DNA of 64,000 nucleotides from an uncultured Gammaproteobacteria bacterium (GTDB taxonomy: Bacteria; Patescibacteriota; Microgenomatia; UBA12405). A model generated the notes under the pieces. That model was not told the DNA's origin. It saw only the letters and a list, made by a program, of their open reading frames with translations, and did not search any database. The translations under genes were made by a program, and so were the position numbers. Of the stretch, positions 22,537 to 60,336 are shown in pieces. Numbering within the stretch: the stretch's first letter is position 1; the number at the start of each line of letters is the position of its first letter. The stretch is from contig CAYXDV010000002.1 in the NCBI GenBank assembly GCA_964463925.1, positions 86,729 through 150,728 on the forward strand, read 5' to 3'.

Positions 22537-22608
22537 TGCCCCTAGCTGGAGTCGAACCAGCCTCAGTGGTTTCGGAAACCACTATTCTATCCACTAAACT
22601 ATAGGGGC
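22537..22608 (-). tRNA. tRNA-Arg (anticodon CCG)
   Basis: Hand-folded cloverleaf: acceptor GCCCCTA/TAGGGGC, anticodon stem GTGGT/ACCAC with loop TTCCGAA, T-arm GCTGG-TTCGACT-CCAGC, discriminator A. No encoded CCA. Confidence 0.8.
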
Positions 22609-29672: not shown

Positions 29673-29755
29673 AGGAAGGGTCGGATAGTGGTTTATTCCA
29701 CACGCTTGGAAAGCGTGCACCGCAAGGTATCGTGGGTTCGAATCCCACCCCTTCC
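29673..29755 (+). tRNA. tRNA-Ser (anticodon GGA), class II with a long variable arm
   Basis: Acceptor GGAAGGG/CCCTTCC, anticodon stem CACGC/GCGTG with loop TTGGAAA, long variable arm, T-arm GTGGG-TTCGAAT-CCCAC, discriminator G. No CCA. Confidence 0.85.
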
Positions 29756-29796
29756 GCACTTCGTGTAATGTTCGAGTAATTTGGTAGAATTGATTT

Positions 29797-35472: not shown

Positions 35473-36354
35473 CTAAAGTATTCTCGCGCCTCTGAATTGC
35501 CAATCATGGTAAATTTCTCCATTTGGAAAAAAAATTATCTGCCTTGCCTTTGTCGGGTCTGGGCTGTGGGTAAGGGCATTGGTCAAACATACATTTTGTC
35601 CAGCTACGTCATAGATAATTGATCCATGCCCACCTTCAAGCACAGGGACACCATTTAGGTCCAAATATCTTTTTACCTCTCTAATTTGCATATCATTTAG
35701 AAAATGTTCCTCTGTCCACCGTCCTATTTCAGTGTTTTCGCTAGTCCCTGGCTTTGCAACTCTTCGCAAAGTCAATTGGGCTACCCCCAACTGTCTGGTC
35801 CAATCTATCATTTCTCCTACTTTTTCAAAACTATCCACCCCGCCATTAAACATAGTTACCGAAAAACGAGTAGAGAAGCCAATTCGGTGCAAGTCCTCTA
35901 TTACTGCAGGCAAATTTATATATTCTTTGTCCCTGGGGGTATATACTCCACGATTCAAATCCGACCTATGGCCTACTACAGAAACTGCTACAAACCCCAA
36001 GCCCAAGTCGTACCATTTCTTTAAATATTCTTTATATTCATTTGGCTTTTTCTCAAACATTATGGCATTAGTTTGCAAATCAATTAAAGGAAATTGGTGT
36101 GGTTTCAAGTGTTCCAAATATTCTGTAATTTGATTTGGAAATAATGTCGGTTCACCTTTTCCAGTGATTACCACGCTACCAACCCTTAAATCTCGCGCCA
36201 TCCTTGCAGCAATTTCAAAATTTCTCCAATTGATTGGTTGTGGTTTCATACCCAAATGTTCAATCCCTGTCATCTTTGATACGCAAAATGGACAACTGGC
36301 GTTACAGGCAGCCGTACCACAAACAATACTAAAATTCTCAGCTTTCTCTATCAT
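35473..36354 (-). CDS. radical SAM protein (paralog of 57257..58009)
   Basis: N-terminal cluster CNASCPFC (CxxxCxxC) and SAM motif ITGKGEPTLFP. It shares CNA[SK]C[PF]FCV[ST]K[ML]T and ITG.G.P.L.P with the second radical SAM ORF. Confidence 0.8.
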   Translation of the reverse strand: MIEKAENFSIVCGTAACNASCPFCVSKMTGIEHLGMKPQPINWRNFEIAARMARDLRVGSVVITGKGEPTLFPNQITEYLEHLKPHQFPLIDLQTNAIMFEKKPNEYKEYLKKWYDLGLGFVAVSVVGHRSDLNRGVYTPRDKEYINLPAVIEDLHRIGFSTRFSVTMFNGGVDSFEKVGEMIDWTRQLGVAQLTLRRVAKPGTSENTEIGRWTEEHFLNDMQIREVKRYLDLNGVPVLEGGHGSIIYDVAGQNVCLTNALTHSPDPTKARQIIFFPNGEIYHDWQFRGARIL

Positions 36355-37291
36355 TTTTTTCCTCCTCTAAAAAATAAGGGGTCAAACAAAATCTATAAGT
36401 ATCTCCACGGGCATATTTAGTTAAATCCATCTCACCATCACCTATCTCTATCTTCTCCTTTGGCATATTTGCCAGTAAAACAACTTCACTCGGTTTTGCT
36501 TTCAATCCAAAATTGCGATTAAGTCTAGAAACCGCCTTCTGTTGCTTTTGTCGATATTTTTGTACTAAATCCAGGCTATTAACATTGGCCAAAACCCGAC
36601 TCGCTACCATTATCGAATAAACATTTTTAAACCATTTGTTTACTTCCAAAGTTGGCAGGGGATAACGGGCAAATATGGCCCCTATTCGCAGGTAGTACAG
36701 GCCAAAGGGCTTGCTCATGGAAGCTACTACAGCTTCAATTGCCGGATGATTTACATTAACTTTTAATTCATCAGTTAGCCCTATGTAAGTGGCATCGTAA
36801 AAAATCCTGTGCCCAGAATTCAGAATATTTTTCCAGTCTGACTCGTTAAAGCTGTTACCATCTTTTGCCTTTGGATTAGATACAAACAAAATTCCTGGTA
36901 ATTGTTGTCCGAGGTCTTTAGTCGACTCAACCGTTATACAATTTATTCCTAAATTCTTAGCATACCCTGCATAGCCTTCGTATTCACCATTCAAAGTATA
37001 CAGTTTTACCGCAGAATTTATAGATTTTTCTCTAGCCAATAAATGGAAAATTGCTTCCGATGCTCCACCAGTTATATATGACTCGGGATATTTATCTAGT
37101 CCTGCCAGCTGTTTTGCCAAATATCGACGATACTCATCCAAAAAGGGTTTATGAAAGTCATCTAATCCAGGGTCAACCGATCTTAATAAAACGCGGTTTA
37201 GTTCTGTTGGTTTTACAGATTCAATAACCTCTCTTACTTCCGGAAACAAATAGCTATAAACTGGCTTTAATGGCTGTATTTTCTCTCTCAT
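36338..37291 (-). CDS. PLP-dependent class I/II aminotransferase-fold protein (short)
   Basis: GGASEAIFHLL, YDATYIG and the PLP-lysine motif SMSKPFGLYYLRIG. The start overlaps the stop of the radical SAM gene. Confidence 0.55.
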   Translation of the reverse strand: MREKIQPLKPVYSYLFPEVREVIESVKPTELNRVLLRSVDPGLDDFHKPFLDEYRRYLAKQLAGLDKYPESYITGGASEAIFHLLAREKSINSAVKLYTLNGEYEGYAGYAKNLGINCITVESTKDLGQQLPGILFVSNPKAKDGNSFNESDWKNILNSGHRIFYDATYIGLTDELKVNVNHPAIEAVVASMSKPFGLYYLRIGAIFARYPLPTLEVNKWFKNVYSIMVASRVLANVNSLDLVQKYRQKQQKAVSRLNRNFGLKAKPSEVVLLANMPKEKIEIGDGEMDLTKYARGDTYRFCLTPYFLEEEKNDRES

Positions 37292-37349: not shown

Positions 37350-38012
37350 TCAGGCGAAATATTGAATACTTCTTTTTACAAAACGGTACATTCTTGCAGG
37401 TCTAAAAGCACCTTCTTTTATCTTATCTACCTTTTCTACCAAGCCCAACTGCAACATTTTTTTTCTAAAATTTCTTTTATCAAGTGGTCTACCCCAAATA
37501 ATTTCATAAATATGTTGCAATTCGGTCAAAGTAAATTCTGTGGGTAGTAGGGCATAGGCCACATTGGAGTAAGCTATTTTATCTTGTAACCTAGCTGTTG
37601 CCGTTTTTATAATTTTTTCATGGTCAAAAGCCATTTTTGGTAATTTATTGACGTCAAACCAAGCCATATCTTGGTAATAATCTGGCTTCCTTATTTCTAA
37701 CTTTTCAGCCATATTTAGTAATAAAAAATAAGCCACAGAGATTGCTCTACTTCGCAAATCACGGTTCAGTTCTCCAAAAGTATATAGCTGTTCCAAATGT
37801 TTAATTTTAAGATTGGTCTTTTGTTCCATTACTCTTTCTGCCGCTAAATCCAAGGTTTCCCCGGATTGAACCAAACCACCGGGAACTGCCCATTTTTTAG
37901 CGTACATACCTTCTTTAATTTGCAGCAAGAGAACTTTTAATCTGTCATCCAAAATACTTAAAACCACAGTATCAACAGCAACCTTTGGTGACAACAAATT
38001 TGTTTTTGTCAT
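37350..38012 (-). CDS. NUDIX hydrolase with a C-terminal extension
   Basis: Nudix box VPGGLVQSGETLDLAAERVMEQKTNL, plus ~90 extra C-terminal residues. Confidence 0.75.
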   Translation of the reverse strand: MTKTNLLSPKVAVDTVVLSILDDRLKVLLLQIKEGMYAKKWAVPGGLVQSGETLDLAAERVMEQKTNLKIKHLEQLYTFGELNRDLRSRAISVAYFLLLNMAEKLEIRKPDYYQDMAWFDVNKLPKMAFDHEKIIKTATARLQDKIAYSNVAYALLPTEFTLTELQHIYEIIWGRPLDKRNFRKKMLQLGLVEKVDKIKEGAFRPARMYRFVKRSIQYFA

Positions 38013-38030: not shown

Positions 38031-39440
38031 CTAAAAACCTGGAAAATAGTCAGTCACTATCTTTTTGACGCCCATTTTTGTCAAACTGTTTTTATATCTA
38101 GCAACCATCCCTCCAGGACCAGAAACAAAAAACACTCTTTCTTTGAAGTCAGGCACTAATTCTTTGATTTTTTCATCTTCTAGATAACCATATTTATCAG
38201 TATTATGTCTTACCACAGTAACCCCAGAATTTTCAATTTCCGTAGCCATTGGAAAATTGTCTCCTTTATTCACATACAAAAGCACTGGCCTTACTATACT
38301 AGAAATCTTATCCAAATCTTTGGCCATACTTGCAAACGGTGTTATTCCAATGCCTCCAGCCAGCCAAGCCATTTTTTCTTCTTTCTTGGCCACAAAATCA
38401 CCGGCAACCAGTGATACTTTTACTTCTTCTCCTGGCCTAATTTGCAGCAGGCGTTTTTTATATTGACTACAATCCGATTCAGGTACTCTTATTATAAGTT
38501 CAATATGTTCATTTCCCGGTCCGTTTGCTAAGGTAAAATATCTGCGATTTCCACGCATGTCAATTTTTACTCCTGGCAATGTCCACTCAATATATTGTCC
38601 GGCTTTAAAAGCTATCTTTTCTGTTGCCGTGAAAACAAATTTCCACACCCCATCACCCAGTTCTTGCTTTTCTACAAACTCAATCAGATAAAACCTTTTT
38701 TTTGCAAGTATATAAACTACCAGATTTCCCAATAGGAGCGCCTGCTCAGGGCCCTTATAATATGCCAAACCAACAATCAACCCCATAATTATCTCTGTTT
38801 TCAAGTTAGTAGCTCCCGTAATTGGTTCAGTCAGCATAATAGTAGCAAAAAATACCAGTGGTCCAGATAACCATAAATATTGCGCTTGACCACCGCTAAA
38901 CCATGTCATTATCGAGGCCTCCAACATTACAATTAACACTAATTTTTCGCGCTTAACTTTTCTTACTACCAAAAAACCGACAATCGCCACTGTCGGAAGC
39001 ATGCTTCGGCTACCAACCCACCACGAAGCCATACCGCTTCCGGCGAGTCCCCCAAAGTATGTAGCCATGGCTGCTGGATTGAAAACATGTAGCTTTTTCC
39101 ATTGCAAAATAAATTTACCAAACTGGGCTAAAGCCAAAATCGCCACTACTTGCCACCACTCACTATTTGTTCTTGGCAAATCTACTATTAAAAACAAGAT
39201 CACGGCGGTAATCAGCCAAGATTCTTGACCCAAAGTTGCCCTAAAAACTTTTGCCAATATCCAAGCCATCAGTCCCGAAACCGTTATACACACGACAAAA
39301 TGTTCAGCTAAGGATAGTGGGGAAAATTTAAGCCATCCAAATACACTTTCCACAAATGCCACCAAGCATAAAACCAAAAGACCATATAAAACAGTTTTAT
39401 ACATAGTTATCCCATTTAGTAGTTGATCAATTTTGTGCAT
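38031..39440 (-). CDS. membrane oxidoreductase: polytopic N-domain with a TGAT flavinylation-like motif, fused to an FNR-like FAD/NAD(P)-binding domain
   Basis: The N-terminal ~250 aa are multi-TM and contain EPITGATNLK, which compares with the S/TGAT FMN-attachment motif of RnfD/NqrB. The C-terminus has an FAD-binding RRYFTLANGP and an NAD-binding WLAGGIGITPFASM. Confidence 0.65.
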   Translation of the reverse strand: MHKIDQLLNGITMYKTVLYGLLVLCLVAFVESVFGWLKFSPLSLAEHFVVCITVSGLMAWILAKVFRATLGQESWLITAVILFLIVDLPRTNSEWWQVVAILALAQFGKFILQWKKLHVFNPAAMATYFGGLAGSGMASWWVGSRSMLPTVAIVGFLVVRKVKREKLVLIVMLEASIMTWFSGGQAQYLWLSGPLVFFATIMLTEPITGATNLKTEIIMGLIVGLAYYKGPEQALLLGNLVVYILAKKRFYLIEFVEKQELGDGVWKFVFTATEKIAFKAGQYIEWTLPGVKIDMRGNRRYFTLANGPGNEHIELIIRVPESDCSQYKKRLLQIRPGEEVKVSLVAGDFVAKKEEKMAWLAGGIGITPFASMAKDLDKISSIVRPVLLYVNKGDNFPMATEIENSGVTVVRHNTDKYGYLEDEKIKELVPDFKERVFFVSGPGGMVARYKNSLTKMGVKKIVTDYFPGF

Positions 39441-40284
39441 AGAACAATTCCACTGGCATATTTAAGGATTTTTTAATCTTCATTTCTTGATTCAAAATTA
39501 AATACTCAAAATCTATTTTATCAACCAATATCTCTACGGGTACTAAGAATAAACAAGTTGCCAAAGTGTCAGCAATCATTGCATTTTTCGCTACCACCCA
39601 TGTTGCAATTATTTCTTGAGGTGATTCTTGTTTTGATGGGTCAAATATATGATGATATTTTCCCCATTTTCGCCGATTTGAAGCCGAGCCGCAAATACTT
39701 CCCTGACTAACCATAGCAATCCCAATAGCTTCTTTTGTGTCTACTGGATTTTCCAGAGCAATCTTTTCACTTTTTGATTTTGATAGAAAAATGTCACCAC
39801 CAGCATTTACCACAAAATCACTCACTAGATTATTCCTGAGTAAGTCTGCCACTTGGTCAACCGCCCACCCTTTGCCAGCAGCCCCCAAATCAAGTTGTAT
39901 TTGTTGCTTTGTAACCACATTATCCATCTCAAGTCTTAGTGCTTCATCCCATTTTGGCAAAAAACTCAAGAGTTTTTCTTTGTTAAAAGAATATTCCTTA
40001 TCATATCCAATTTCTTCCAAATTTTTACCTATCATTGGGGTAAATTTACCACCAGTCCAATCATACATTTTTTCATACCAAGACCATAGCTCCATCATTT
40101 TTCTCTCCTGTCTATAAATCCCAGGCCGTTTTGACATCTGATTTAAATAAGAGTTTGGTATAAACCGTGAATACTCCATCTCAAAATTAGAAAGCCAATG
40201 AAGTATCTTTTCTCTAGCTCTAGTGTTAACCTCTCCCTGGACTAGCCAAGAAGTTCCCAAAGCATTAAATTTCCAATTGGTCAC
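39427..40284 (-). CDS. apbE: FAD:protein FMN transferase (ApbE family)
   Basis: ApbE motifs LDLGAAGKGWAVDQVADLL and VNAGGDIF. Confidence 0.8.
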   Translation of the reverse strand: MTNWKFNALGTSWLVQGEVNTRAREKILHWLSNFEMEYSRFIPNSYLNQMSKRPGIYRQERKMMELWSWYEKMYDWTGGKFTPMIGKNLEEIGYDKEYSFNKEKLLSFLPKWDEALRLEMDNVVTKQQIQLDLGAAGKGWAVDQVADLLRNNLVSDFVVNAGGDIFLSKSKSEKIALENPVDTKEAIGIAMVSQGSICGSASNRRKWGKYHHIFDPSKQESPQEIIATWVVAKNAMIADTLATCLFLVPVEILVDKIDFEYLILNQEMKIKKSLNMPVELFYAQN

Positions 40285-40766
40285 ACACCGGCTTGTTGCT
40301 TAATCTTGCCCAAGGCATCTAAAAATCCTTGGGGGGTCAATGACCCACCTGAAATATTTACTGTGTCAAGTTGACTCAATTTTTTACCAACTACAGCTGG
40401 ACCAAAGTTGCTAGCAAATTCTTGCTGAAATCTCACTGACTGCCTATCTCTTCCCATGACTGTAGCCACTCCATTGCTAACTATTCCATTCCTTATGCTA
40501 AGTTCTATCCCAATTTGTTCGGGCCCTTCTGGAGTCATATAATTACCAATTGCTTGATAAGATTTCTCGCCATTTGCTGGCAAATTAGATCCAGTTGTTG
40601 GAGTATTTGTTACAACGATTCCAGTTTCTGTACTAGTAACTTTTGCCACAAGCCCATTGTTTGACTGATTCAAACTACCTTCCTGATTTTTAGCGCCACA
40701 ACCAGCCAATAATATAGTTGCCAAGGCGACAGTTGAAATTATTTTTTTATTTTGCATAAGTTTCAT
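40281..40766 (-). CDS. FMN-binding-domain lipoprotein (candidate ApbE substrate)
   Basis: Lipobox LLAGCGA. The C-terminal TVNISGGSLTPQGFLDAL resembles the FMN_bind flavinylation motif D.vSGATiTS. Confidence 0.55.
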   Translation of the reverse strand: MKLMQNKKIISTVALATILLAGCGAKNQEGSLNQSNNGLVAKVTSTETGIVVTNTPTTGSNLPANGEKSYQAIGNYMTPEGPEQIGIELSIRNGIVSNGVATVMGRDRQSVRFQQEFASNFGPAVVGKKLSQLDTVNISGGSLTPQGFLDALGKIKQQAGV

Positions 40767-40786: not shown

Positions 40787-41248
40787 TTAATTTGTTTTAT
40801 TTAAAGCAGGACTAGGATTTCTAATCATTGGATTAAGCTGCACATCTTGAGCTGTAACGCTACCATCTGTATTTTCCGTTCCAAGTATTCTAACGGTCTT
40901 GCCAATTGCCATATCAGAATTTGATCCAACTTCTGTCTTCTCAATTGCTGTATTAGTAGTTAACAAAATAATTTTACTGCTCCCATCTTGACTCTTGATA
41001 GTAATTGAAGAATCATCTCGGGCACTTATCTCTCCTACAATTGGCCTAAATCTGTTTTGTCCATTCGATCCAAATCCATTTCTAACGCCAGCAGGATTAC
41101 TACCCATCATCCCTCCAAACTGACCATTTCTCCCAGAAGAACCCAAGGCCTTAGACTTGCCATATTGCCATCCACCCAAAAAACCAACAATACTTCCAGC
41201 AAAAGCAATTACTAACATTAACCACATAGCATTATTTTTTTGTTTCAT
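40787..41248 (-). CDS. hypothetical secreted Gly/Asn/Ser-rich protein
   Basis: 153 aa with an N-terminal signal/TM and a low-complexity middle. Confidence 0.45.
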   Translation of the reverse strand: MKQKNNAMWLMLVIAFAGSIVGFLGGWQYGKSKALGSSGRNGQFGGMMGSNPAGVRNGFGSNGQNRFRPIVGEISARDDSSITIKSQDGSSKIILLTTNTAIEKTEVGSNSDMAIGKTVRILGTENTDGSVTAQDVQLNPMIRNPSPALNKTN

Positions 41249-41290
41249 ATTGTATGTATACTAAAAATTTAATCTGAAAGTTTACTGAAT

Positions 41291-42514
41291 TTATTCATAA
41301 CGCAAAGCTTCAATTGGTTGCAAATTGGCGGCCCTCTTGGCAGGATAATACCCAAAAACTAGGCCAATTATCACCGAGACTGCAAAAGCCAATAAAACTG
41401 AGGTAGGTGATACCACAAATATTGACCCAGTTAACTTGGCATAAACAAAAGAAGCTAGAATTCCAAAAGCTATTCCAATCATTCCTCCTGTGAATGTCAG
41501 CAAAATTGACTCAACCAAGAATTGTGTCGTAATAATAACTTTTTTTGCACCCAACGCCTTTCGTAGACCAATCTCTCTTGTACGTTCGGTCACCGTGACC
41601 AACATGATATTCATAATACCAATTCCTCCCACAACTAAAGAAATTGCTGCCACCCCAGAAAGCAGAGTAGTAAATGTCTGCGTTGTACTTCCTGCTGTAT
41701 TCAAAATATCTTGCTGGGAAAAAATAGAAAAATCAGCCTGAGAAGGATCGTTGAATTTGTGTCTTGCTAGCAACAAATATCCAACTTCATTTTGAGCCGT
41801 GGTCATTAAGTCAGCACTTTTTGCTTCAAGAGCAATTGATGACAAGTTATTTGACCCAAACAGTAGTTTCATTGCAGTTGTAAGAGGTACATACACTACA
41901 TCATCTTGATTTTGAAACCCAGTTCCACCTTTTGCCCTAGTAACCCCGATTATCACAAGTGATTGTCCATTTATTCGTATATTTTGACCCAATGCACTGG
42001 TCACATCACCAAACAGATTAATAGCTGTCGTTGGTCCTACTATTGCAACCCTGCCCATGTTCTGGACTTCACTTTGTCCAAAAAAATTACCAACATCTAT
42101 ATTAACTTTATGGACTTCCAAATAATTTTGAGTACAGCCCACAATTTGACTGTTGCTGTTGTTTTTTCCAGTACTGATTTGAGCACGTCGGTTATATTCT
42201 GGTGAAACTAGTTGAACGCTTGTGACATCAGTCGAATTGCTTATGGCTTGTGCATCTTCAAATGTTAATGTGGTAGCCCCGCCAAGTGCTCCGCGCACAG
42301 CTCCTTGTCTGGTAGAACCAGGCATCACAGTCAATAAATTCGAACCCAAAGATTGAATCTGCGACTGTATGGCTTTTTGGCTGGACTGCCCCAAGGAAAT
42401 TAAAGTAATTACACTGGCAATCCCAATTACGATTCCTAAAATTGCCAGGCCTGTTCTGGTTTTGTTCAAAGTCAACATTCCTAAACTTTCTTGTAATAAT
42501 TCCCAAAAACTCAT
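41291..42514 (-). CDS. ABC transporter permease, MacB/FtsX family
   Basis: Single N-terminal TM, a large periplasmic MacB-like domain, and a C-terminal FtsX 3-TM bundle. Confidence 0.85.
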   Translation of the reverse strand: MSFWELLQESLGMLTLNKTRTGLAILGIVIGIASVITLISLGQSSQKAIQSQIQSLGSNLLTVMPGSTRQGAVRGALGGATTLTFEDAQAISNSTDVTSVQLVSPEYNRRAQISTGKNNSNSQIVGCTQNYLEVHKVNIDVGNFFGQSEVQNMGRVAIVGPTTAINLFGDVTSALGQNIRINGQSLVIIGVTRAKGGTGFQNQDDVVYVPLTTAMKLLFGSNNLSSIALEAKSADLMTTAQNEVGYLLLARHKFNDPSQADFSIFSQQDILNTAGSTTQTFTTLLSGVAAISLVVGGIGIMNIMLVTVTERTREIGLRKALGAKKVIITTQFLVESILLTFTGGMIGIAFGILASFVYAKLTGSIFVVSPTSVLLAFAVSVIIGLVFGYYPAKRAANLQPIEALRYE

Positions 42515-42515
42515 C

Positions 42516-43196
42516 TCAATTCTGGCTCAAATGGCCATCACGTATATGAATAACTCTTTGGGCATAAGCAGCAATATCTGGTTCATGGGTAATCATCACT
42601 ATTGTGTGTCCCTCTTTATGTAATTTACTGAAAATAGACATAATTTCTTCTGCTTGGGCACTGGCAATATTCCCAGTAGGCTCATCAGCCAAAATTAAGG
42701 CAGGATTTAAACCAAGAGCCCTGGCTACTGCCACTCTTTGTTGTTGCCCTCCCGAGAGTTGATTACTTGTATGTAGCATTCGATCACCCAAGCCAACCAT
42801 TTTTAACAGTTCTCTTGATCTTTTCTCTCTTTCTTCCAGTTCAATTCCGGCGTATACCATTGGCAACATGACATTTTTAAGTGCAGTAATTCTTGGTAAT
42901 AAATTAAATGCCTGAAACACAAAGCCAATCTTTTTGTTTCTTACTTCTGATAGTTCATCATCATTCATCTGACTAATTTCTACTCCGTCCAAAAAATATT
43001 TACCTCCCGTTGGCTTGTCCAAAGCCCCAAGTATGTGCATCAAAGTAGACTTTCCCGAACCAGATGGCCCCATTATGGCTACAAATTCTCCCTTTTTTAT
43101 CTCGATGTTTATATCTTCCAAAGCCACAGTCTCTATCAAATCAGTTTTGTATACTTTACTTATCCCTGTTGTTTTTATTACTACGCTACTCTTCAT
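42516..43196 (-). CDS. ABC transporter ATP-binding protein (MacB/LolD-like)
   Basis: Walker A GPSGSGKST, signature LSGGQQQRVA, and Walker B LILADEPTG. The preferred start is MKSSVVIKT. The track ORF extends to 43241 and overlaps the adaptor gene. Confidence 0.9.
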   Translation of the reverse strand: MKSSVVIKTTGISKVYKTDLIETVALEDINIEIKKGEFVAIMGPSGSGKSTLMHILGALDKPTGGKYFLDGVEISQMNDDELSEVRNKKIGFVFQAFNLLPRITALKNVMLPMVYAGIELEEREKRSRELLKMVGLGDRMLHTSNQLSGGQQQRVAVARALGLNPALILADEPTGNIASAQAEEIMSIFSKLHKEGHTIVMITHEPDIAAYAQRVIHIRDGHLSQN

Positions 43197-43203
43197 TTGC
43201 CAA

Positions 43204-44403
43204 CTAACGTAAATTTCTAAATTGGCCACCGCCACCACCAATCCCTACTCCTCCAAAAGGAGAGCTAGTGTTCGTACTGGTTGTCGTATTTGTGCTCGAA
43301 GTACTAGTAATTACGCTTTGCCCTTCCGAAATCCCACTGATAATCTGAGTCTGAGTATCGTTGTTTATGCCAACTTCAACCGTCTGATTCTGAACTTGAT
43401 TATTTTGCAGTATTTTGACAGTACTTGTGCCAGTGCTCGTATTCGTTGTCACTGCTTTGTTTGGCACCAACAATGCATCAGCAACTACATTTGTAATAAT
43501 TTTTGCTGTCACCGCCATGTTGGCATATATACCATCTGGCGTATCATCAAATACCAATATGCAGGGATAAGAAACTACACCAGAACTCGATGTCCCAGTG
43601 GTATCTATTGCTAATACTTTGCCAGTAAACGTTTTATTTGCGATAGCATCTAAACTAAAAGTAACTTTCTCTCCTGGCAAAACTTTGCCAACATCTGACT
43701 CTGATAAGTTTACAGTTGCCTGAATTTTGCTCAACGTATTTTTTATGGCTCCAATTTTTTGCCCAGAAGTAGAAATTGTAATTCCTGGTTCAAGGGCAAA
43801 ATTAACCAAGGTACCACTACCAGGGGACAGAATATTGCTCGAAACAGATTGGTAATCCAAATAATTACTTTGCAAACTAGTCTGAGATTGGGCAATTGCA
43901 CTTGACTGATTTTTATAGTCAGCTTCTGCCTGAAGCCAATCAGCCTTTTCTTGGATATATGTCGGATCCAAATCACTCAAATTTCTTGCAACTGCATCAT
44001 TTATAAATTTCTGATTAGCCTTAAAAGCAGCAGACTGAAGAGAGTTTAGCCTATCTTTGTTATTCTGCAATTGATTTTTCGCTGCCAAATAAGCTGCATA
44101 TGAACTTATCTGTTTTTGTTTGGAAGCTAAATCAGGCTGTAGTCTGGCCAAGATTTGACCAGCATATATTTTTTGCCCATCTTTTACATATACTTTGTCC
44201 ACAATGCCAGTAGTCGTAGTGGTGATCGGACTAATATTAGTCCCACTAATCAATCCAGACGCAGAGACATAAGCAACCAATGTTCCACGCTCAACCACAG
44301 ATGTTTGATAACTTATTTGATTTGTTTTATTACTTAGTTTCCAGCGGTAGCCAGCATAAATTAACCCTGCAAGTAAACAGCCAATTAATATTTTTTTCCA
44401 CAT
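43204..44403 (-). CDS. HlyD/MacA-family periplasmic adaptor subunit with a Gly-rich C-terminus
   Basis: N-terminal TM, a coiled-coil region, lipoyl/beta-barrel-like segments, and a tail of GGVGIGGGGGQ. Confidence 0.7.
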   Translation of the reverse strand: MWKKILIGCLLAGLIYAGYRWKLSNKTNQISYQTSVVERGTLVAYVSASGLISGTNISPITTTTTGIVDKVYVKDGQKIYAGQILARLQPDLASKQKQISSYAAYLAAKNQLQNNKDRLNSLQSAAFKANQKFINDAVARNLSDLDPTYIQEKADWLQAEADYKNQSSAIAQSQTSLQSNYLDYQSVSSNILSPGSGTLVNFALEPGITISTSGQKIGAIKNTLSKIQATVNLSESDVGKVLPGEKVTFSLDAIANKTFTGKVLAIDTTGTSSSGVVSYPCILVFDDTPDGIYANMAVTAKIITNVVADALLVPNKAVTTNTSTGTSTVKILQNNQVQNQTVEVGINNDTQTQIISGISEGQSVITSTSSTNTTTSTNTSSPFGGVGIGGGGGQFRNLR

Positions 44404-44443
44404 AGCCTTATCTTACTCCCAATCCTGAACCATAGCTGAAGGA

Positions 44444-45451
44444 TTAACCCTTTGGTAATTGCATATAAAAAGTTGACCCTTCCCCTAACTTGCTTTCAAG
44501 CCAAATTTTGCCATTGGCGCTTTCAATTAATCTTTTTGCAATTGGCAACCCTAAACCAAAGCCATTATTGCCAGATCTGGAACCATCAATTCGATAAAAT
44601 CTTTCAAATATTTTCTCAATTTGATCTTTTGCAATACCCATCCCTTGGTCTGCAATCGCAATCACCACCGAATTTGTTCTATTCTTTATTTTTATCCGAA
44701 TCCTAGACTTTTTTTGGCTATATTTAATAGCGTTATCTAAAAGAATTGTCAAAGCCCTTCCCATATCATCTGAATTCCACCAAACTTTACTTGAAATTTT
44801 AGTGCGAGAAATCGTAATCAGTTTCTTTTTAGCTAATGGGGCGATACTCTCCATAACCACATCAATATTTCTTGCTACTAAAATCGCTTTGTTTTCGACA
44901 ACATTTCTACCGTTTTCTAATTTTCCAAGAAACAATAAGCTTTCAACTAGTTTCTGAAGTCGGTCAACATCAGAAAGACTACCATCAAGCATTTCTTTAA
45001 TTTCTTCTTTACTATTCATTTTCCAACCACGAAGATATACCTCCAAATTTGTCTTAAGGGCGGTTAGAGGAGTTTTTAACTCATGTCCTGCGTCATTAAT
45101 AAATCTTCTCTGTTCTTCCAGGCTTTCTTCGATCGGACCCAAAGTCTTTCCAGCTAAAAAATATCCTCCTCCAGCACCAAGTAGCCAAAGTAAACCATTG
45201 ATTACCATCAAACTTAGAAAAGCTCTTTTTTTTGCTTCTTCCATTACATCATCATCAATGATCACGGGAACCATCATTCTCCTTTCCAATCGAACTTTCT
45301 GTGCCGTAGCAAAACGTTCCATCTCTATACTCCAAGAACGATAAATTACTACACTGAAGCTAGTGCTTACAAGCATAATTGCAAGCACATACCAGGCTGT
45401 TAATCTTAATCTGGCTTCCTTAAACATGAACCACATCCAACAAATATCCAA
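44444..45451 (-). CDS. sensor histidine kinase
   Basis: Two TMs, an H-box DAGHELKTPLTAL, and HATPase_c N/G boxes (LDNAIKYS; DQGMGI; GFGLGL). Confidence 0.85.
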   Translation of the reverse strand: MDICWMWFMFKEARLRLTAWYVLAIMLVSTSFSVVIYRSWSIEMERFATAQKVRLERRMMVPVIIDDDVMEEAKKRAFLSLMVINGLLWLLGAGGGYFLAGKTLGPIEESLEEQRRFINDAGHELKTPLTALKTNLEVYLRGWKMNSKEEIKEMLDGSLSDVDRLQKLVESLLFLGKLENGRNVVENKAILVARNIDVVMESIAPLAKKKLITISRTKISSKVWWNSDDMGRALTILLDNAIKYSQKKSRIRIKIKNRTNSVVIAIADQGMGIAKDQIEKIFERFYRIDGSRSGNNGFGLGLPIAKRLIESANGKIWLESKLGEGSTFYMQLPKG

Positions 45452-46088
45452 AGCCGCGACGAGTATGAATTAGCTCAGGTAAACCAAGTTTTCTCCTTAA
45501 ATTTTTGATATTAACCTCAATAGTATTTGGTAATACTTCAGCTCCAAAACTCCAGATTCGTGAGATTATTTGTTCTTTACTAATAACTTTTTTTTGATTT
45601 CTTAAGAAATATTCTAATAGCGCAAACTCCTTTTGTGATAACTCGATAGTTTTTTTACTACGCTTAACAATCAGAGCAGTCAAATCCATTTCTATATCTT
45701 CAAATTTTAAAATATTTTCAATCATGTTTATTGGTCTCCTGACCAAAGCCCGCATTCTTGACAGCAACTCCTCAAAAGCAAATGGTTTAGCTAAATAGTC
45801 ATCAGCACCACTGTCTAAACCAACCACTTTGTCTCTTACTTGGTCTTTTGCAGTAAGCATTAGAATAGGAGTCTTTATTTTATCTGCACGCAACTTTTTA
45901 CACACTGTAATTCCATCCATTTTAGGCAACATTAAATCTAAAATCACCAAATCATATTCACCACCACCAGCCAAATCATAACCCTCTTCACCATCACTCG
46001 CAATATCCACCACATAATTTTCCTGTCTCAAACCTTTAGCCAAGCCACGGGCTATCCGTTCTTCATCTTCTATAATTAACACTTTCAT
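45420..46088 (-). CDS. OmpR-family response regulator
   Basis: Receiver domain (MKVLIIEDEERI...DLVILDLMLPKMDG...LMLTAKD) and a winged-helix output domain. Confidence 0.9.
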   Translation of the reverse strand: MKVLIIEDEERIARGLAKGLRQENYVVDIASDGEEGYDLAGGGEYDLVILDLMLPKMDGITVCKKLRADKIKTPILMLTAKDQVRDKVVGLDSGADDYLAKPFAFEELLSRMRALVRRPINMIENILKFEDIEMDLTALIVKRSKKTIELSQKEFALLEYFLRNQKKVISKEQIISRIWSFGAEVLPNTIEVNIKNLRRKLGLPELIHTRRGFGYLLDVVHV

Positions 46089-54229: not shown

Positions 54230-54320
54230 TGGCGGTAGGAGAGGGAGTCGAACCCTCATGCCGCTTTTTACACGACGCAGGTTTAGCAAACCTGTGGCTT
54301 ACCATTCGCCGCATCCTACC
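54230..54320 (-). tRNA. tRNA-Ser (anticodon GCU), class II, CCA encoded
   Basis: Acceptor GGTAGGA/TCCTACC, anticodon stem CAGGT/ACCTG with loop TTGCTAA, long variable arm, T-arm GAGGG-TTCGACT-CCCTC, discriminator G, and 3' CCA. Confidence 0.85.
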
Positions 54321-54991: not shown

Positions 54992-55065
54992 GCGCCCGTA
55001 GCTTAATTGGATAGAGCATTGGTTTGCGGAACCAAAGGTTGCTGGTTCAAGTCCAGCCGGGCGCA
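54992..55065 (+). tRNA. tRNA-Arg (anticodon read as GCG)
   Basis: Acceptor GCGCCCG/CGGGCGC, D-loop with A20, anticodon stem TTGGT/ACCAA with loop TTGCGGA, T-arm GCTGG-TTCAAGT-CCAGC, discriminator A. A GCG anticodon is unusual for Bacteria. Confidence 0.7.
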
Positions 55066-55075
55066 CACATAAATT

Positions 55076-55163
55076 GGAGGGTTGGCCCAGTGGTTTAAGG
55101 CACTGGTTTCGAAAACCAGCGGGAGCAATTCCATCGCAGGTTCGAATCCTGCACCCTCCGCCA
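55076..55163 (+). tRNA. tRNA-Ser (anticodon CGA), class II, CCA encoded
   Basis: Acceptor GGAGGGT/ACCCTCC, anticodon stem CTGGT/ACCAG with loop TTCGAAA, long variable arm, T-arm GCAGG-TTCGAAT-CCTGC, discriminator G, and CCA. Confidence 0.85.
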
Positions 55164-59811: not shown

Positions 59812-60336
59812 TTGAAAGTTAACATAAACTATAAATCCTTCTTGCGACCCGGCAACGGGGCCACAGATATCACCCCCTTATTCGGGAACTCCCAAGCTTT
59901 TAATTCTCTAATCGACGAACTTTTTACTCTTTTTGCCAATTTAAAACCCGAAAAAATCGCTTGTATCGAGGGTAGAGGATTTCTGCTTGGTAGCGCTCTG
60001 GCTTACAAGTTCAAGGCCGGTCTTGTTCCCATTCGTACTTTAGGAAAATTAAAAAACAAAACGTATTCCCAAGCCTATACTGACTATTCCAACAAAGAAA
60101 AAACTCTACAGATCCACCAAGATGCTCTCATCAAAGGGGAAAAAGTCATTTTAATTGACGACTGGCTAGAAACAGGAGCCACGATTAAAGCTTCAATAAA
60201 TTTGTTAGAGTCATGCGGTGCCCAAGTTGTTGGTATTGCTGTCTTTATGGATGATTCCAATGCTAGCCTAAAAAAAGACCTGCAAAAGTATAACTATCGC
60301 TATTTACTGCAAATTAAACCCGAAGATAAATTTTAA
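59812..60336 (+). CDS. apt: adenine phosphoribosyltransferase
   Basis: PRTase type I motif VILIDDWLETGATIKA, IEGRGFLLGSALAYK and DITPLF. Confidence 0.8.
   Translation: MKVNINYKSFLRPGNGATDITPLFGNSQAFNSLIDELFTLFANLKPEKIACIEGRGFLLGSALAYKFKAGLVPIRTLGKLKNKTYSQAYTDYSNKEKTLQIHQDALIKGEKVILIDDWLETGATIKASINLLESCGAQVVGIAVFMDDSNASLKKDLQKYNYRYLLQIKPEDKF

Follow-up and report, generated by a model that had tools for sequence, protein, structure and literature searches.

A three-gene flavin module on a patescibacterial contig

The stretch of DNA considered here (the window) comprises 64,000 nucleotides (nt) of contig CAYXDV010000002.1 (assembly GCA_964463925.1), which comes from an uncultured bacterium placed by GTDB in the Patescibacteriota. 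Its minus strand carries three genes, for a flavin mononucleotide (FMN)-binding lipoprotein, an ApbE-family flavin transferase, and a polytopic membrane domain fused to an FNR-type domain for NAD(P)H and flavin adenine dinucleotide (FAD). In the order in which they are read, with lengths in amino acids (aa), they are:

40281..40766, minus strand: FMN-binding lipoprotein gene (NqrC/RnfG-like subunit), 161 aa, ATG start
39427..40284, minus strand: ApbE-family FAD:protein FMN transferase gene of 'type B' (see below), 285 aa, GTG start, longest possible reading frame
38031..39440, minus strand: fusion gene for an NqrB/RnfD-like membrane domain and an FNR-type NAD(P)H/FAD domain, 469 aa, ATG start

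The three genes are genuine and together make up a well-formed example of the NQR/RNF-like system, which is already known. An initial annotation, made from the letters of the window, had described three overlapping minus-strand genes, and the open reading frames (ORFs) confirm this: the stop of the lipoprotein gene and the start of apbE share 4 nt (GTGA), and apbE and the fusion gene share 14 nt. The peptides which that annotation quoted are all in place, with NISGGSLTPQGFL in the lipoprotein and EPITGAT (residues 205-211), RRYFT (299-303) and GGIGITPF (362-369) in the fusion protein. Residues 1-12 of the latter (MHKIDQLLNGIT) fit a nearly invariant N-terminal motif of its homologs (D5, L8, N9, T12, and M13), and for this reason the 469-aa start, which overlaps apbE, is probably correct. 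The fusion protein as deposited in the database (P0001) has 457 aa and begins at Met13 (window 39405-39440). Read-through of the TGA, joining the lipoprotein to ApbE, was considered and rejected, given that the ApbE frame differs and that long ORFs under translation table 11 favour the standard code. Promoter and terminator scans returned matches at or below chance level, and these carry no information on the limits of the operon.

A published and abundant architecture

Gene clusters of this kind have been described before. Méheust et al. (2021, eLife; PMC8238504) collected flavinylation-associated clusters in which ApbE or FMN_bind occurs within five genes and at least one predicted signal peptide or lipobox is present, and termed those with a fusion of PF03116 and PF00175 the 'NQR/RNF-like system'. 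They counted 127 such clusters, for the most part from Actinobacteria and the candidate phyla radiation (CPR), and suggested that NAD(P)H drives electrons in one direction only, towards an FMN-binding domain outside the cell (PMC8238504). A model of the Ktedonobacter complex was subsequently presented by Huang et al. (2024, mSystems; PMC10979944 / PMC11334425), in which the flavinylation site of NqrB/RnfD is missing from the membrane domain and the flavinylated residue of the NqrC/RnfG-like subunit lies beside a vacant flavin pocket on the outer face (PMC11334425). The window fusion has the same plan, with an N-terminal PF03116-type domain and a C-terminal NqrF-type NAD-binding domain, and immediately upstream of it, in overlapping genes, are ApbE and an FMN_bind lipoprotein with a lipobox (LAGC).

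The domain fusion had been thought unusual in the initial annotation. It is instead a published and abundant architecture: when 5.8 billion proteins were searched for homologs, the matches listed held more than 3,240 significant full-length ones, most of them with precomputed PF03116 and/or PF00175 matches, and those with named sources include Daviesbacteria, Levybacteria, Shapirobacteria, and the 'Patescibacteria group'. Patescibacteria hold many more members of the family than would be expected from the original census. That the census counted only 127 clusters, and that its authors saw the CPR as under-represented, is probably due to its filter, which required a signal peptide or lipobox; most of the FMN_bind partners seen here have plain membrane anchors, and their ApbEs lack any signal.

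Gene order was compared in a synteny sample of 80 genome loci, three metagenome loci, and the window, which spans Patescibacteria, Ktedonobacteria and other Chloroflexota, Actinomycetota, Alphaproteobacteria, and Spirochaetota. The order FMN protein, ApbE, fusion is nearly invariant in this sample (of about 81 loci, 72 have ApbE and 74 the FMN protein). Neither near the window genes nor at 80 related loci is there any RnfA/B/C/E or NqrA/D/E/F, the NqrC/RnfG-like FMN protein being the only such component, and the genes by which the Listeria type of extracellular electron transfer (EET) is recognised (Ndh2, EetA/EetB, and dedicated quinone genes) are absent from the neighbourhood.

The lipoprotein and its predicted flavinylation site

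The following parts can be told apart in the lipoprotein, with support from AlphaFold2 (AF2) models and their predicted local distance difference test (pLDDT) scores:

40698..40766, minus strand: signal peptide with lipobox LAG-C23 (MKLMQNKKIISTVALATILLAGC), from direct reading, with weak NCBIfam lipoprotein-signal matches and the same anchor in relatives
40569..40697, minus strand: Ser/Thr/Asn-rich disordered tether, residues 24-66 (about 43 residues), between the lipid anchor and the FMN domain; AF2 pLDDT 44-57
40284..40568, minus strand: divergent FMN_bind domain, residues 67-161, from the family alignment, profile, AF2, and Foldseek
40341..40343, minus strand: Ser142, the predicted flavinylated residue in I-S-G-G-S142-L-T, invariant in 57/57 and aligned with the Thr of SGAT in 8p2a

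Pfam gives no match to the window lipoprotein, FMN_bind (PF04205) included, and PF04205 matches 20 of the 57 aligned members of its family. Relatives are numerous, with 2,913 found by an exhaustive profile search as compared with three by a word-based search. The context of Ser142 across the 57 members is [S/A]G[S/A/G]S-L-T-P-x-G-F, and when the family profile is aligned with 8p2a, an FMN-binding domain of solved structure, Ser142 stands opposite the Thr of its SGAT. The AF2 model consists of three strands and three helices, with domain blocks at pLDDT 85-96, and its top PDB match by Foldseek is again 8p2a at a modest E of 1.7e-3, RnfG matches being weaker. The tether has no secondary structure in the model and is variable in length and poorly conserved in the family alignment. 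FMN_bind substrates are recognised by their fold together with [S/T]G[A/S][S/T] where the last helix begins, and the window protein is counted among them; the canonical Asp at position -3 of the acceptor Ser is absent. The resemblance of the C-terminus to an FMN_bind flavinylation motif, first noticed in the initial annotation, is borne out by the invariant Ser142 and the alignment to 8p2a, and the covalent flavin of the system is likely carried by this serine.

The fusion protein: an RnfD-like membrane domain joined to an FNR-type domain

Three features of the fusion protein define its overall plan:

38697..39440, minus strand: RnfD/NqrB-like membrane domain, residues 1-248, with an N-terminal amphipathic helix and ten helices, from PF03116, the profile match to RnfD, AF2, and the positive-inside count
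39000..39044, minus strand: shortened linker between helices V and VI, residues 133-147, AGSGMASWWVGSRSM, in place of the RnfD linker of about 50 residues that bears the flavinylated Thr
38034..38693, minus strand: FNR-type FAD/NAD(P)H domain, residues 250-469, with R300-Y-F-T303, G362-GIGITPF, and the C-terminal aromatic F466, from NCBIfam, profile, and Foldseek

On its own, the window fusion matches PF03116 (NQR2_RnfD_RnfE) with 24.3 bits and E 2.5e-5 over residues 142-226, which is below the cut-off of 27.7. Many homologs at 36-43% identity have precomputed matches to both PF03116 and PF00175, and a profile of the N-domain run against the PDB has RnfD as its sole significant match (8ahx_D, E 0.0013); the same profile does not reach NqrB. 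Run against the PDB, a full-length profile finds only FNR relatives, and Foldseek with the full-length model is dominated by matches to the FNR domain, so that the RnfD fold is not confirmed structurally by this route. Judged from these homologs and the N-domain profile, the RnfD-like match is real at the family level although the window sequence is sub-threshold. In the AF2 model (pLDDT 91.8, predicted TM score 0.86), an N-terminal amphipathic helix is followed by ten membrane helices, and these by the FNR domain. RnfD itself has two inverted sets of five helices (5+5), and its N- and C-termini are both cytoplasmic (PMC9588780). When loop sides were assigned to the AF2 helices from this RnfD-based topology and positive charges then counted, the predicted inner loops held a mean of 10.1 Lys and Arg residues (K/R) as compared with 1.2 in the outer loops, and inner exceeded outer in 120/120 sequences. 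The linker between helices V and VI, with W140/W141, is predicted to face outward.

This linker is where the family departs from RnfD, in which the covalent FMN is attached to Thr153 within an external five-helix linker spanning residues 140-190 (PMC9588780). Residues 146-197 of 7zc6_D correspond to only about 14 profile positions of the fusion family, the V-VI linker is 15 residues long in 114/120 homologs, and a flavinylation-like motif occurs there in 1/120. The window membrane domain thus has no flavinylated Thr of the kind conserved in NqrB/RnfD, and the covalent FMN on a conserved linker Thr that marks RnfD/NqrB proper is missing from it. As far as alignment can tell, the external loop bearing the covalent FMN in RnfD/NqrB is no longer present in the membrane domain.

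The C-terminal half is readily assigned. NCBIfam places residues ~254-462 in the FNR family with E values down to 9e-14, and Pfam PF00175 gives no match to the window fusion at E<=0.1, this family being present in most of its homologs among the precomputed matches. The full-length profile aligns to NqrF at E 8e-18, with the RxYS-type motif, GGxGxxP, and the C-terminal Phe in common, and to other FNR-family PDB chains as well. By Foldseek, the best structural match to residues 250-469 is the dehydrogenase domain of SpNOX (TM score 0.81), accompanied by NqrF and FNR domains. The reading of the protein as an RnfD/NqrB-like domain fused to an FNR domain is therefore upheld by profiles, homolog Pfam matches, and AF2.

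The TGAT motif falls in a putative riboflavin site

A tetrapeptide in the membrane domain had been proposed as a second flavinylation site, and its surroundings can be compared with the riboflavin site of NqrB and RnfD:

38808..38819, minus strand: T208-G-A-T211, the flavinylation site proposed in the initial annotation, judged to be a chance tetrapeptide inside the riboflavin motif
38808..38852, minus strand: F197-FATIMLTEPITGAT-211, homolog of the NqrB/RnfD riboflavin-binding motif 'FMATD(P/Y)', with E205 equivalent to D346/D248, from alignments
39069..39089, minus strand: H118-V-F-N121-P-A-A, equivalent to RnfD N121/N124 and NqrB N200/N203/A205, aligned to 'NIVNPAL' of 7zc6_D

The N-domain profile sets the TGAT stretch opposite 'FFIATDPVTSPIS' in 8ahx_D and opposite 'IFMATD248YATSP' in 7zc6_D, and NqrB carries FFMATD346PVSA at this point, as read from the D346A primer (PMC10643135). 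In NqrB, riboflavin is hydrogen-bonded by D346, T345, F342, N200, and N203, and the double mutants N203A/D346A and N200A/D346A lose it (PMC9293633). Across 120 aligned homologs of the fusion, the local consensus is M-L-T-E-P-L-T-T-P-P, with M202, E205, and P206 invariant. By comparison, the residues of the tetrapeptide are rare: Gly occurs at position 209 in 4/120 and Ala at 210 in 4/120, position 211 is Pro in 87/120 and Thr in 7/120, and the two closest full-length relatives (58-61% identity) read TGAN, with Asn at 211. By cryo-EM, riboflavin is found closer to the cytoplasmic side and the covalent FMN closer to the periplasm (PMC10643135), and the loop between helices VIII and IX that contains TEPITGAT falls, by the predicted topology, in the cytoplasmic half of the membrane. 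This loop is nearly free of K/R, as would be expected for a buried cofactor site.

EPITGAT had been taken for an S/TGAT covalent-FMN site, and this identification has to be abandoned, since the stretch aligns with the riboflavin motif and not with the flavinylated loop. Placement on the cytoplasmic side and the lack of a flavinylatable Thr/Ser in alignments were named by the initial annotation itself as grounds for dropping the idea; the motif lies in the cytoplasmic half, and no conserved Thr/Ser is found there. A plausible-looking S/TGAT motif can evidently mislead, here by falling in a riboflavin-binding helix and outside the flavinylation loop. The tetrapeptide [ST]GA[ST] occurs twice in the 20,230 aa of window ORFs, and about 0.05 occurrences would be expected per 469-aa protein, which makes it uncommon yet not beyond chance for the window as a whole. 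The other occurrence (DWLETGATIKAS, residue 121) is in an unrelated 174-aa ORF at 59812-60336 and serves as a chance baseline.

What the membrane domain appears to have kept is the riboflavin site. By alignment, H118 corresponds to RnfD N121 (NqrB N200), N121 to N124 (N203), and E205 to D248 (D346), so that the site known from RnfD/NqrB is represented with two conservative changes, N to H and D to E. No variation is seen at H118, N121, P122, M202, E205, and P206 in 60 diverse sequences, nor at E73 and S74. The residues of the NqrB/RnfD riboflavin pocket are, on the evidence of these alignments, retained as invariant H118, N121, T204, and E205. We infer that a non-covalent flavin fills the retained pocket and links the FAD of the FNR domain to the outer pocket. 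For comparison, riboflavin in Rnf is 7.7 Å from the FMN of RnfD and 11.7 Å from the first cytoplasmic iron-sulfur (FeS) cluster (PMC9588780). The riboflavin site of the NQR/RNF-like family is not discussed in two Light-lab papers.

ApbE and its pairing with the lipoprotein

The product of the second gene matches PF02424 with E 5e-37 over profile positions 2-249 of 266, which confirms it as an ApbE flavin transferase, as had been proposed. Its catalytic domain begins at residue 10, and the N-terminal signal peptide or lipobox that marks an extracytosolic ApbE is missing. The same is true throughout the family: even in the longest possible ORFs, an N-terminal hydrophobic segment, signal peptide, lipobox, or anchor is found in 0/72 cluster-linked ApbEs, and, with six exceptions, the catalytic domain begins between residues 1 and 30. 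The canonical ApbE is an exported lipoprotein. Cytoplasmic ApbEs are documented for cytoplasmic substrates only (PMC12052999). The FMN_bind partners, on the other hand, have an N-terminal hydrophobic anchor in 67/75 cases and a lipobox in 8, the window protein included. Lys and Arg are richer on the N-terminal flank of the anchor in 51 cases as compared with 6, and because of this excess the partners are taken to have the N-terminus inside and the C-terminus outside, with the domain facing outward. In the literature consulted on the NQR/RNF-like system, no comment on this mismatch was found.

Two types of ApbE can be distinguished, and each goes with its own acceptor motif. The short type A (~247 aa) has partners with [ST]GA[ST]-type motifs, mostly the canonical VDxxSGAT; where a motif could be scored, 20/20 were of this type (17 of them SGAT), and of 18 further type A cases missed by the regular expression, the 12 shown are all SGAT or SGAS. 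With type B (~285-295 aa), to which the window enzyme belongs, the partner motif is xG[S/G/A]S-LT in 21/22, and the Asp at -3 is usually absent. This co-variation of ApbE subtype with partner motif supports the pairing of ApbE and lipoprotein as enzyme and substrate.

Proposed electron pathway

The most likely mechanism, to which we assign a probability of roughly 0.7, is one in which electrons pass from NAD(P)H to the FAD of the FNR domain, then to a non-covalent flavin, then to the covalent FMN on Ser142 of the lipoprotein, and finally to an external acceptor. The module would be a two-subunit, NQR/RNF-like outward electron conduit encoded together with its own flavin transferase. ApbE would move FMN from FAD onto Ser142, and NAD(P)H would reduce the FAD of the FNR domain. 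Electrons would then reach the non-covalent flavin of the retained riboflavin pocket in the cytoplasmic half of the membrane, and from there the covalent FMN of the lipoprotein, docked in the uncapped FMN pocket on the outer face as in the multimer model of Huang et al. The tethered FMN domain would hand the electrons to an acceptor outside the cell. The result would be a three-flavin wire free of quinone, heme, and FeS, that is, the RnfD limb of Rnf run outward. The general idea of an NAD(P)H conduit to a lipoprotein, already voiced in the initial annotation, agrees with what has been published for the same architecture, whereas its covalent FMN on the membrane domain does not hold; the functional analogy that it drew with flavin-based EET is the same as the proposal of Méheust et al. 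(2021) and Huang et al. (2024).

Several points weigh against this pathway. The searchable literature holds no experiments on any member of the NQR/RNF-like family, and cofactor content, the acceptor, and the direction in which electrons flow are matters of inference. For the docking of the lipoprotein FMN, the model is that of Huang et al. for a distant (type A) member. The riboflavin site carries substitutions (N to H, D to E), and conservation of its residues could reflect ion handling rather than flavin binding, because the same residues of Rnf are also implicated in Na+ binding. Finally, an ApbE without any export signal is paired with a presumed substrate that is exported, which leaves the flavinylation step topologically unexplained. 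A tentative explanation of this last point, somewhat doubtful at present, is that ApbE loads FMN onto the C-terminal motif inside the cell, with FAD at hand, and that Sec carries the flavinylated protein out afterwards.

The missing export signals (0/72) could also be read to mean that the whole module is intracellular, with the FMN_bind protein flavinylated in the cytoplasm and remaining there as a carrier between the FNR and membrane domains or as part of a soluble reductase, as in cytoplasmic fumarate reductases; cytoplasmic ApbEs that modify cytoplasmic enzymes are, after all, documented (PMC12052999). This is very unlikely in view of the lipoboxes in the window protein and seven others, the anchors in 67/75 partners with their charge bias of 51 to 6, the homology of the lipoprotein to the external subunits NqrC/RnfG, and the published multimer model, which docks the FMN subunit on the outer face (PMC11334425). 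Hardly credible is a covalent FMN on Thr211 of the fusion, installed outside by ApbE as in NqrB/RnfD to give two covalent FMNs in series. It is true that E-P-I-T-G-A-T fits the loose ApbE motif [DE]xx[ST]GA[ST], that the tetrapeptide is uncommon in a protein of such size (~0.05 expected), and that the PF03116 match spans the region. Nevertheless, the stretch aligns with the FMATD(P/Y) riboflavin motif rather than the flavinylated linker, position 211 is mostly Pro (87/120) and is Asn in the two nearest full-length relatives, the predicted topology puts it in the cytoplasmic half of the membrane, and Huang et al. independently report that the flavinylation site is not conserved in the family (PMC11334425).

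A different role for the invariant polar residues arises if the RnfD-like core is mainly a Na+/H+ pathway in an ion-coupled redox machine, working either by electron export with cation uptake or by inward reduction of NAD(P)+ by an external reductant. RnfD/NqrB is an ion-translocating subunit, a dual role in binding Na+ and riboflavin has been suggested for D248 and N124 of RnfD, the equivalents of E205 and N121 (PMC9588780), and the family keeps E205 and N121 invariant together with other polar intramembrane residues, E73 and S74. However, coupling in Rnf/Nqr uses RnfA/E (NqrD/E), with RnfG/NqrC making large movements from one of two docking sites to the other, and RnfA/E (NqrD/E) were not found at the loci. 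The covalent FMN and the occluding linker that are proposed to gate the channel are deleted, and mutations of N200, N203, and D346 in NqrB left the Km for Na+ unchanged (PMC9293633). Ion coupling is thus unlikely, and outward electron transfer through three flavins remains the preferred interpretation.

Relation to known systems

There is no essential difference from the published NQR/RNF-like system. The same fusion is accompanied by an adjacent apbE and an NqrC/RnfG-like protein, the covalent site in the membrane is lost in both, the taxa are the same (Actinobacteria, CPR, and Ktedonobacteria), and so is the proposed route from NAD(P)H to an external FMN. The window system differs in its details: it has the longer ApbE subtype, a Ser acceptor in xG[S/G]S-LT lacking the canonical Asp, a lipobox anchor, and a fusion that falls below Pfam thresholds for both defining domains. 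With RnfD/NqrB, it shares the ten-helix topology (5+5), cytoplasmic termini, the NPA-type and (F)M(A/L)T(D/E)P riboflavin motifs, and the FMN pocket on the outer face. In contrast to these proteins, the window fusion has no covalent FMN Thr, its five-helix linker is reduced from ~50 to 15 residues, the partners RnfA/B/C/E or NqrA/D/E/F are missing, a C-terminal FNR domain replaces the docked RnfC/NqrA, and electron flow is presumed to be unidirectional and outward.

Flavin-based EET in Listeria (Ndh2, EetA/B, DmkA/B, FmnB, and PplA) likewise leads from NAD(P)H to an external lipoprotein with ApbE-installed FMN on FMN_bind, and it too occurs in organisms without a classical respiratory chain. 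There, the membrane step consists of a type II NADH dehydrogenase and a demethylmenaquinone pool, while in the window it would be a single RnfD-like/FNR polypeptide with no quinone. Moreover, FmnB is an exported lipoprotein, whereas the window ApbE has no signal, and PplA contains two FMN_bind domains as opposed to one in the window lipoprotein. NOX/ferric reductases such as SpNOX also combine a membrane electron-transfer domain and a C-terminal FNR-type dehydrogenase in one polypeptide; the membrane domain of SpNOX is a six-helix di-heme domain unrelated to RnfD, and the carriers of the window protein would be flavins.

Neighbouring genes and other features of the window

No terminal electron acceptor is evident among the neighbouring genes. 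Immediately upstream of the three genes is a co-directional block that is possibly linked to them:

40787..46088, minus strand: upstream block, assigned by Pfam on the syntenic locus L001; recurs in about 14 loci
45420-46088, minus strand: response regulator
44444-45451, minus strand: histidine kinase
43204-44403, minus strand: HlyD/YknX-like adaptor
42516-43241, minus strand: ABC ATPase
41291-42514, minus strand: MacB/FtsX permease
40787-41248, minus strand: DUF5666-like membrane protein, with a weak DUF5666 match

The block adjoins the flavin genes in about 14 related loci with differing orientations, and a histidine kinase or response regulator adjoins them in about 21; both are associations in gene order only. 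The DUF5666-like gene was considered as a part of the flavin module and rejected; it is assigned to the ABC transporter block because it stays with that block in loci where the blocks are inverted.

The methionine-sulfoxide repair enzymes MsrA/MsrB were considered as the acceptor and set aside as a minor association, being present in only 5 of about 84 loci. They lie immediately downstream of the fusion in L002 (7342-8204) and L003 (7673-8585) and next to or near it also in L012, L021, and L073. This adjacency, not seen in the window, may be a link to oxidative stress. In the window, the gene directly downstream of the fusion encodes an NrtR-type regulator (Nudix and winged-helix, 37350-38012), an adjacency found in only 4 loci from close relatives. 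Beyond it are genes for a class I/II aminotransferase-like protein and a radical SAM protein, which overlap each other (35473-37291) and are syntenic in L001. Over the whole window (1-64000), GC skew is strongly negative for the most part, with a change of sign at ~28-34 kb, where the genes turn to the plus strand. Five tRNA genes are present, at 22537-22608, 29674-29756, 54233-54320, 54992-55065, and 55076-55160.

Possible implications for redox balance in Patescibacteria

The architecture and its proposed role were already published in 2021 and 2024, and as a catalogue entry, the window system adds little. What appears to be new relative to the literature consulted is the invariance of the NqrB riboflavin-site residues throughout the family and the absence of an export signal from 72/72 cluster ApbEs. 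Both lead to points that can be tested, namely whether the riboflavin site acts as an electron carrier in the middle of the membrane and how a signal-less ApbE is reconciled with an exported substrate. If the lipoprotein is indeed flavinylated in the cytoplasm, the cofactor would be loaded before Sec export, and secretion of FAD would no longer be needed. Together, pre-export loading and a retained NqrB-type riboflavin pocket would, if true, make the module a self-contained, quinone-free NAD(P)H outlet built on three flavins.

Patescibacteria are mostly without respiratory chains. With more than 3,000 homologs, such an outlet could be a major redox-balancing route in this group, if the proposed mechanism is true. 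Ultimately, if the module is the main route by which NAD(P)H is re-oxidised without quinones or cytochromes, it would bear on how bacteria with reduced genomes maintain their redox balance.

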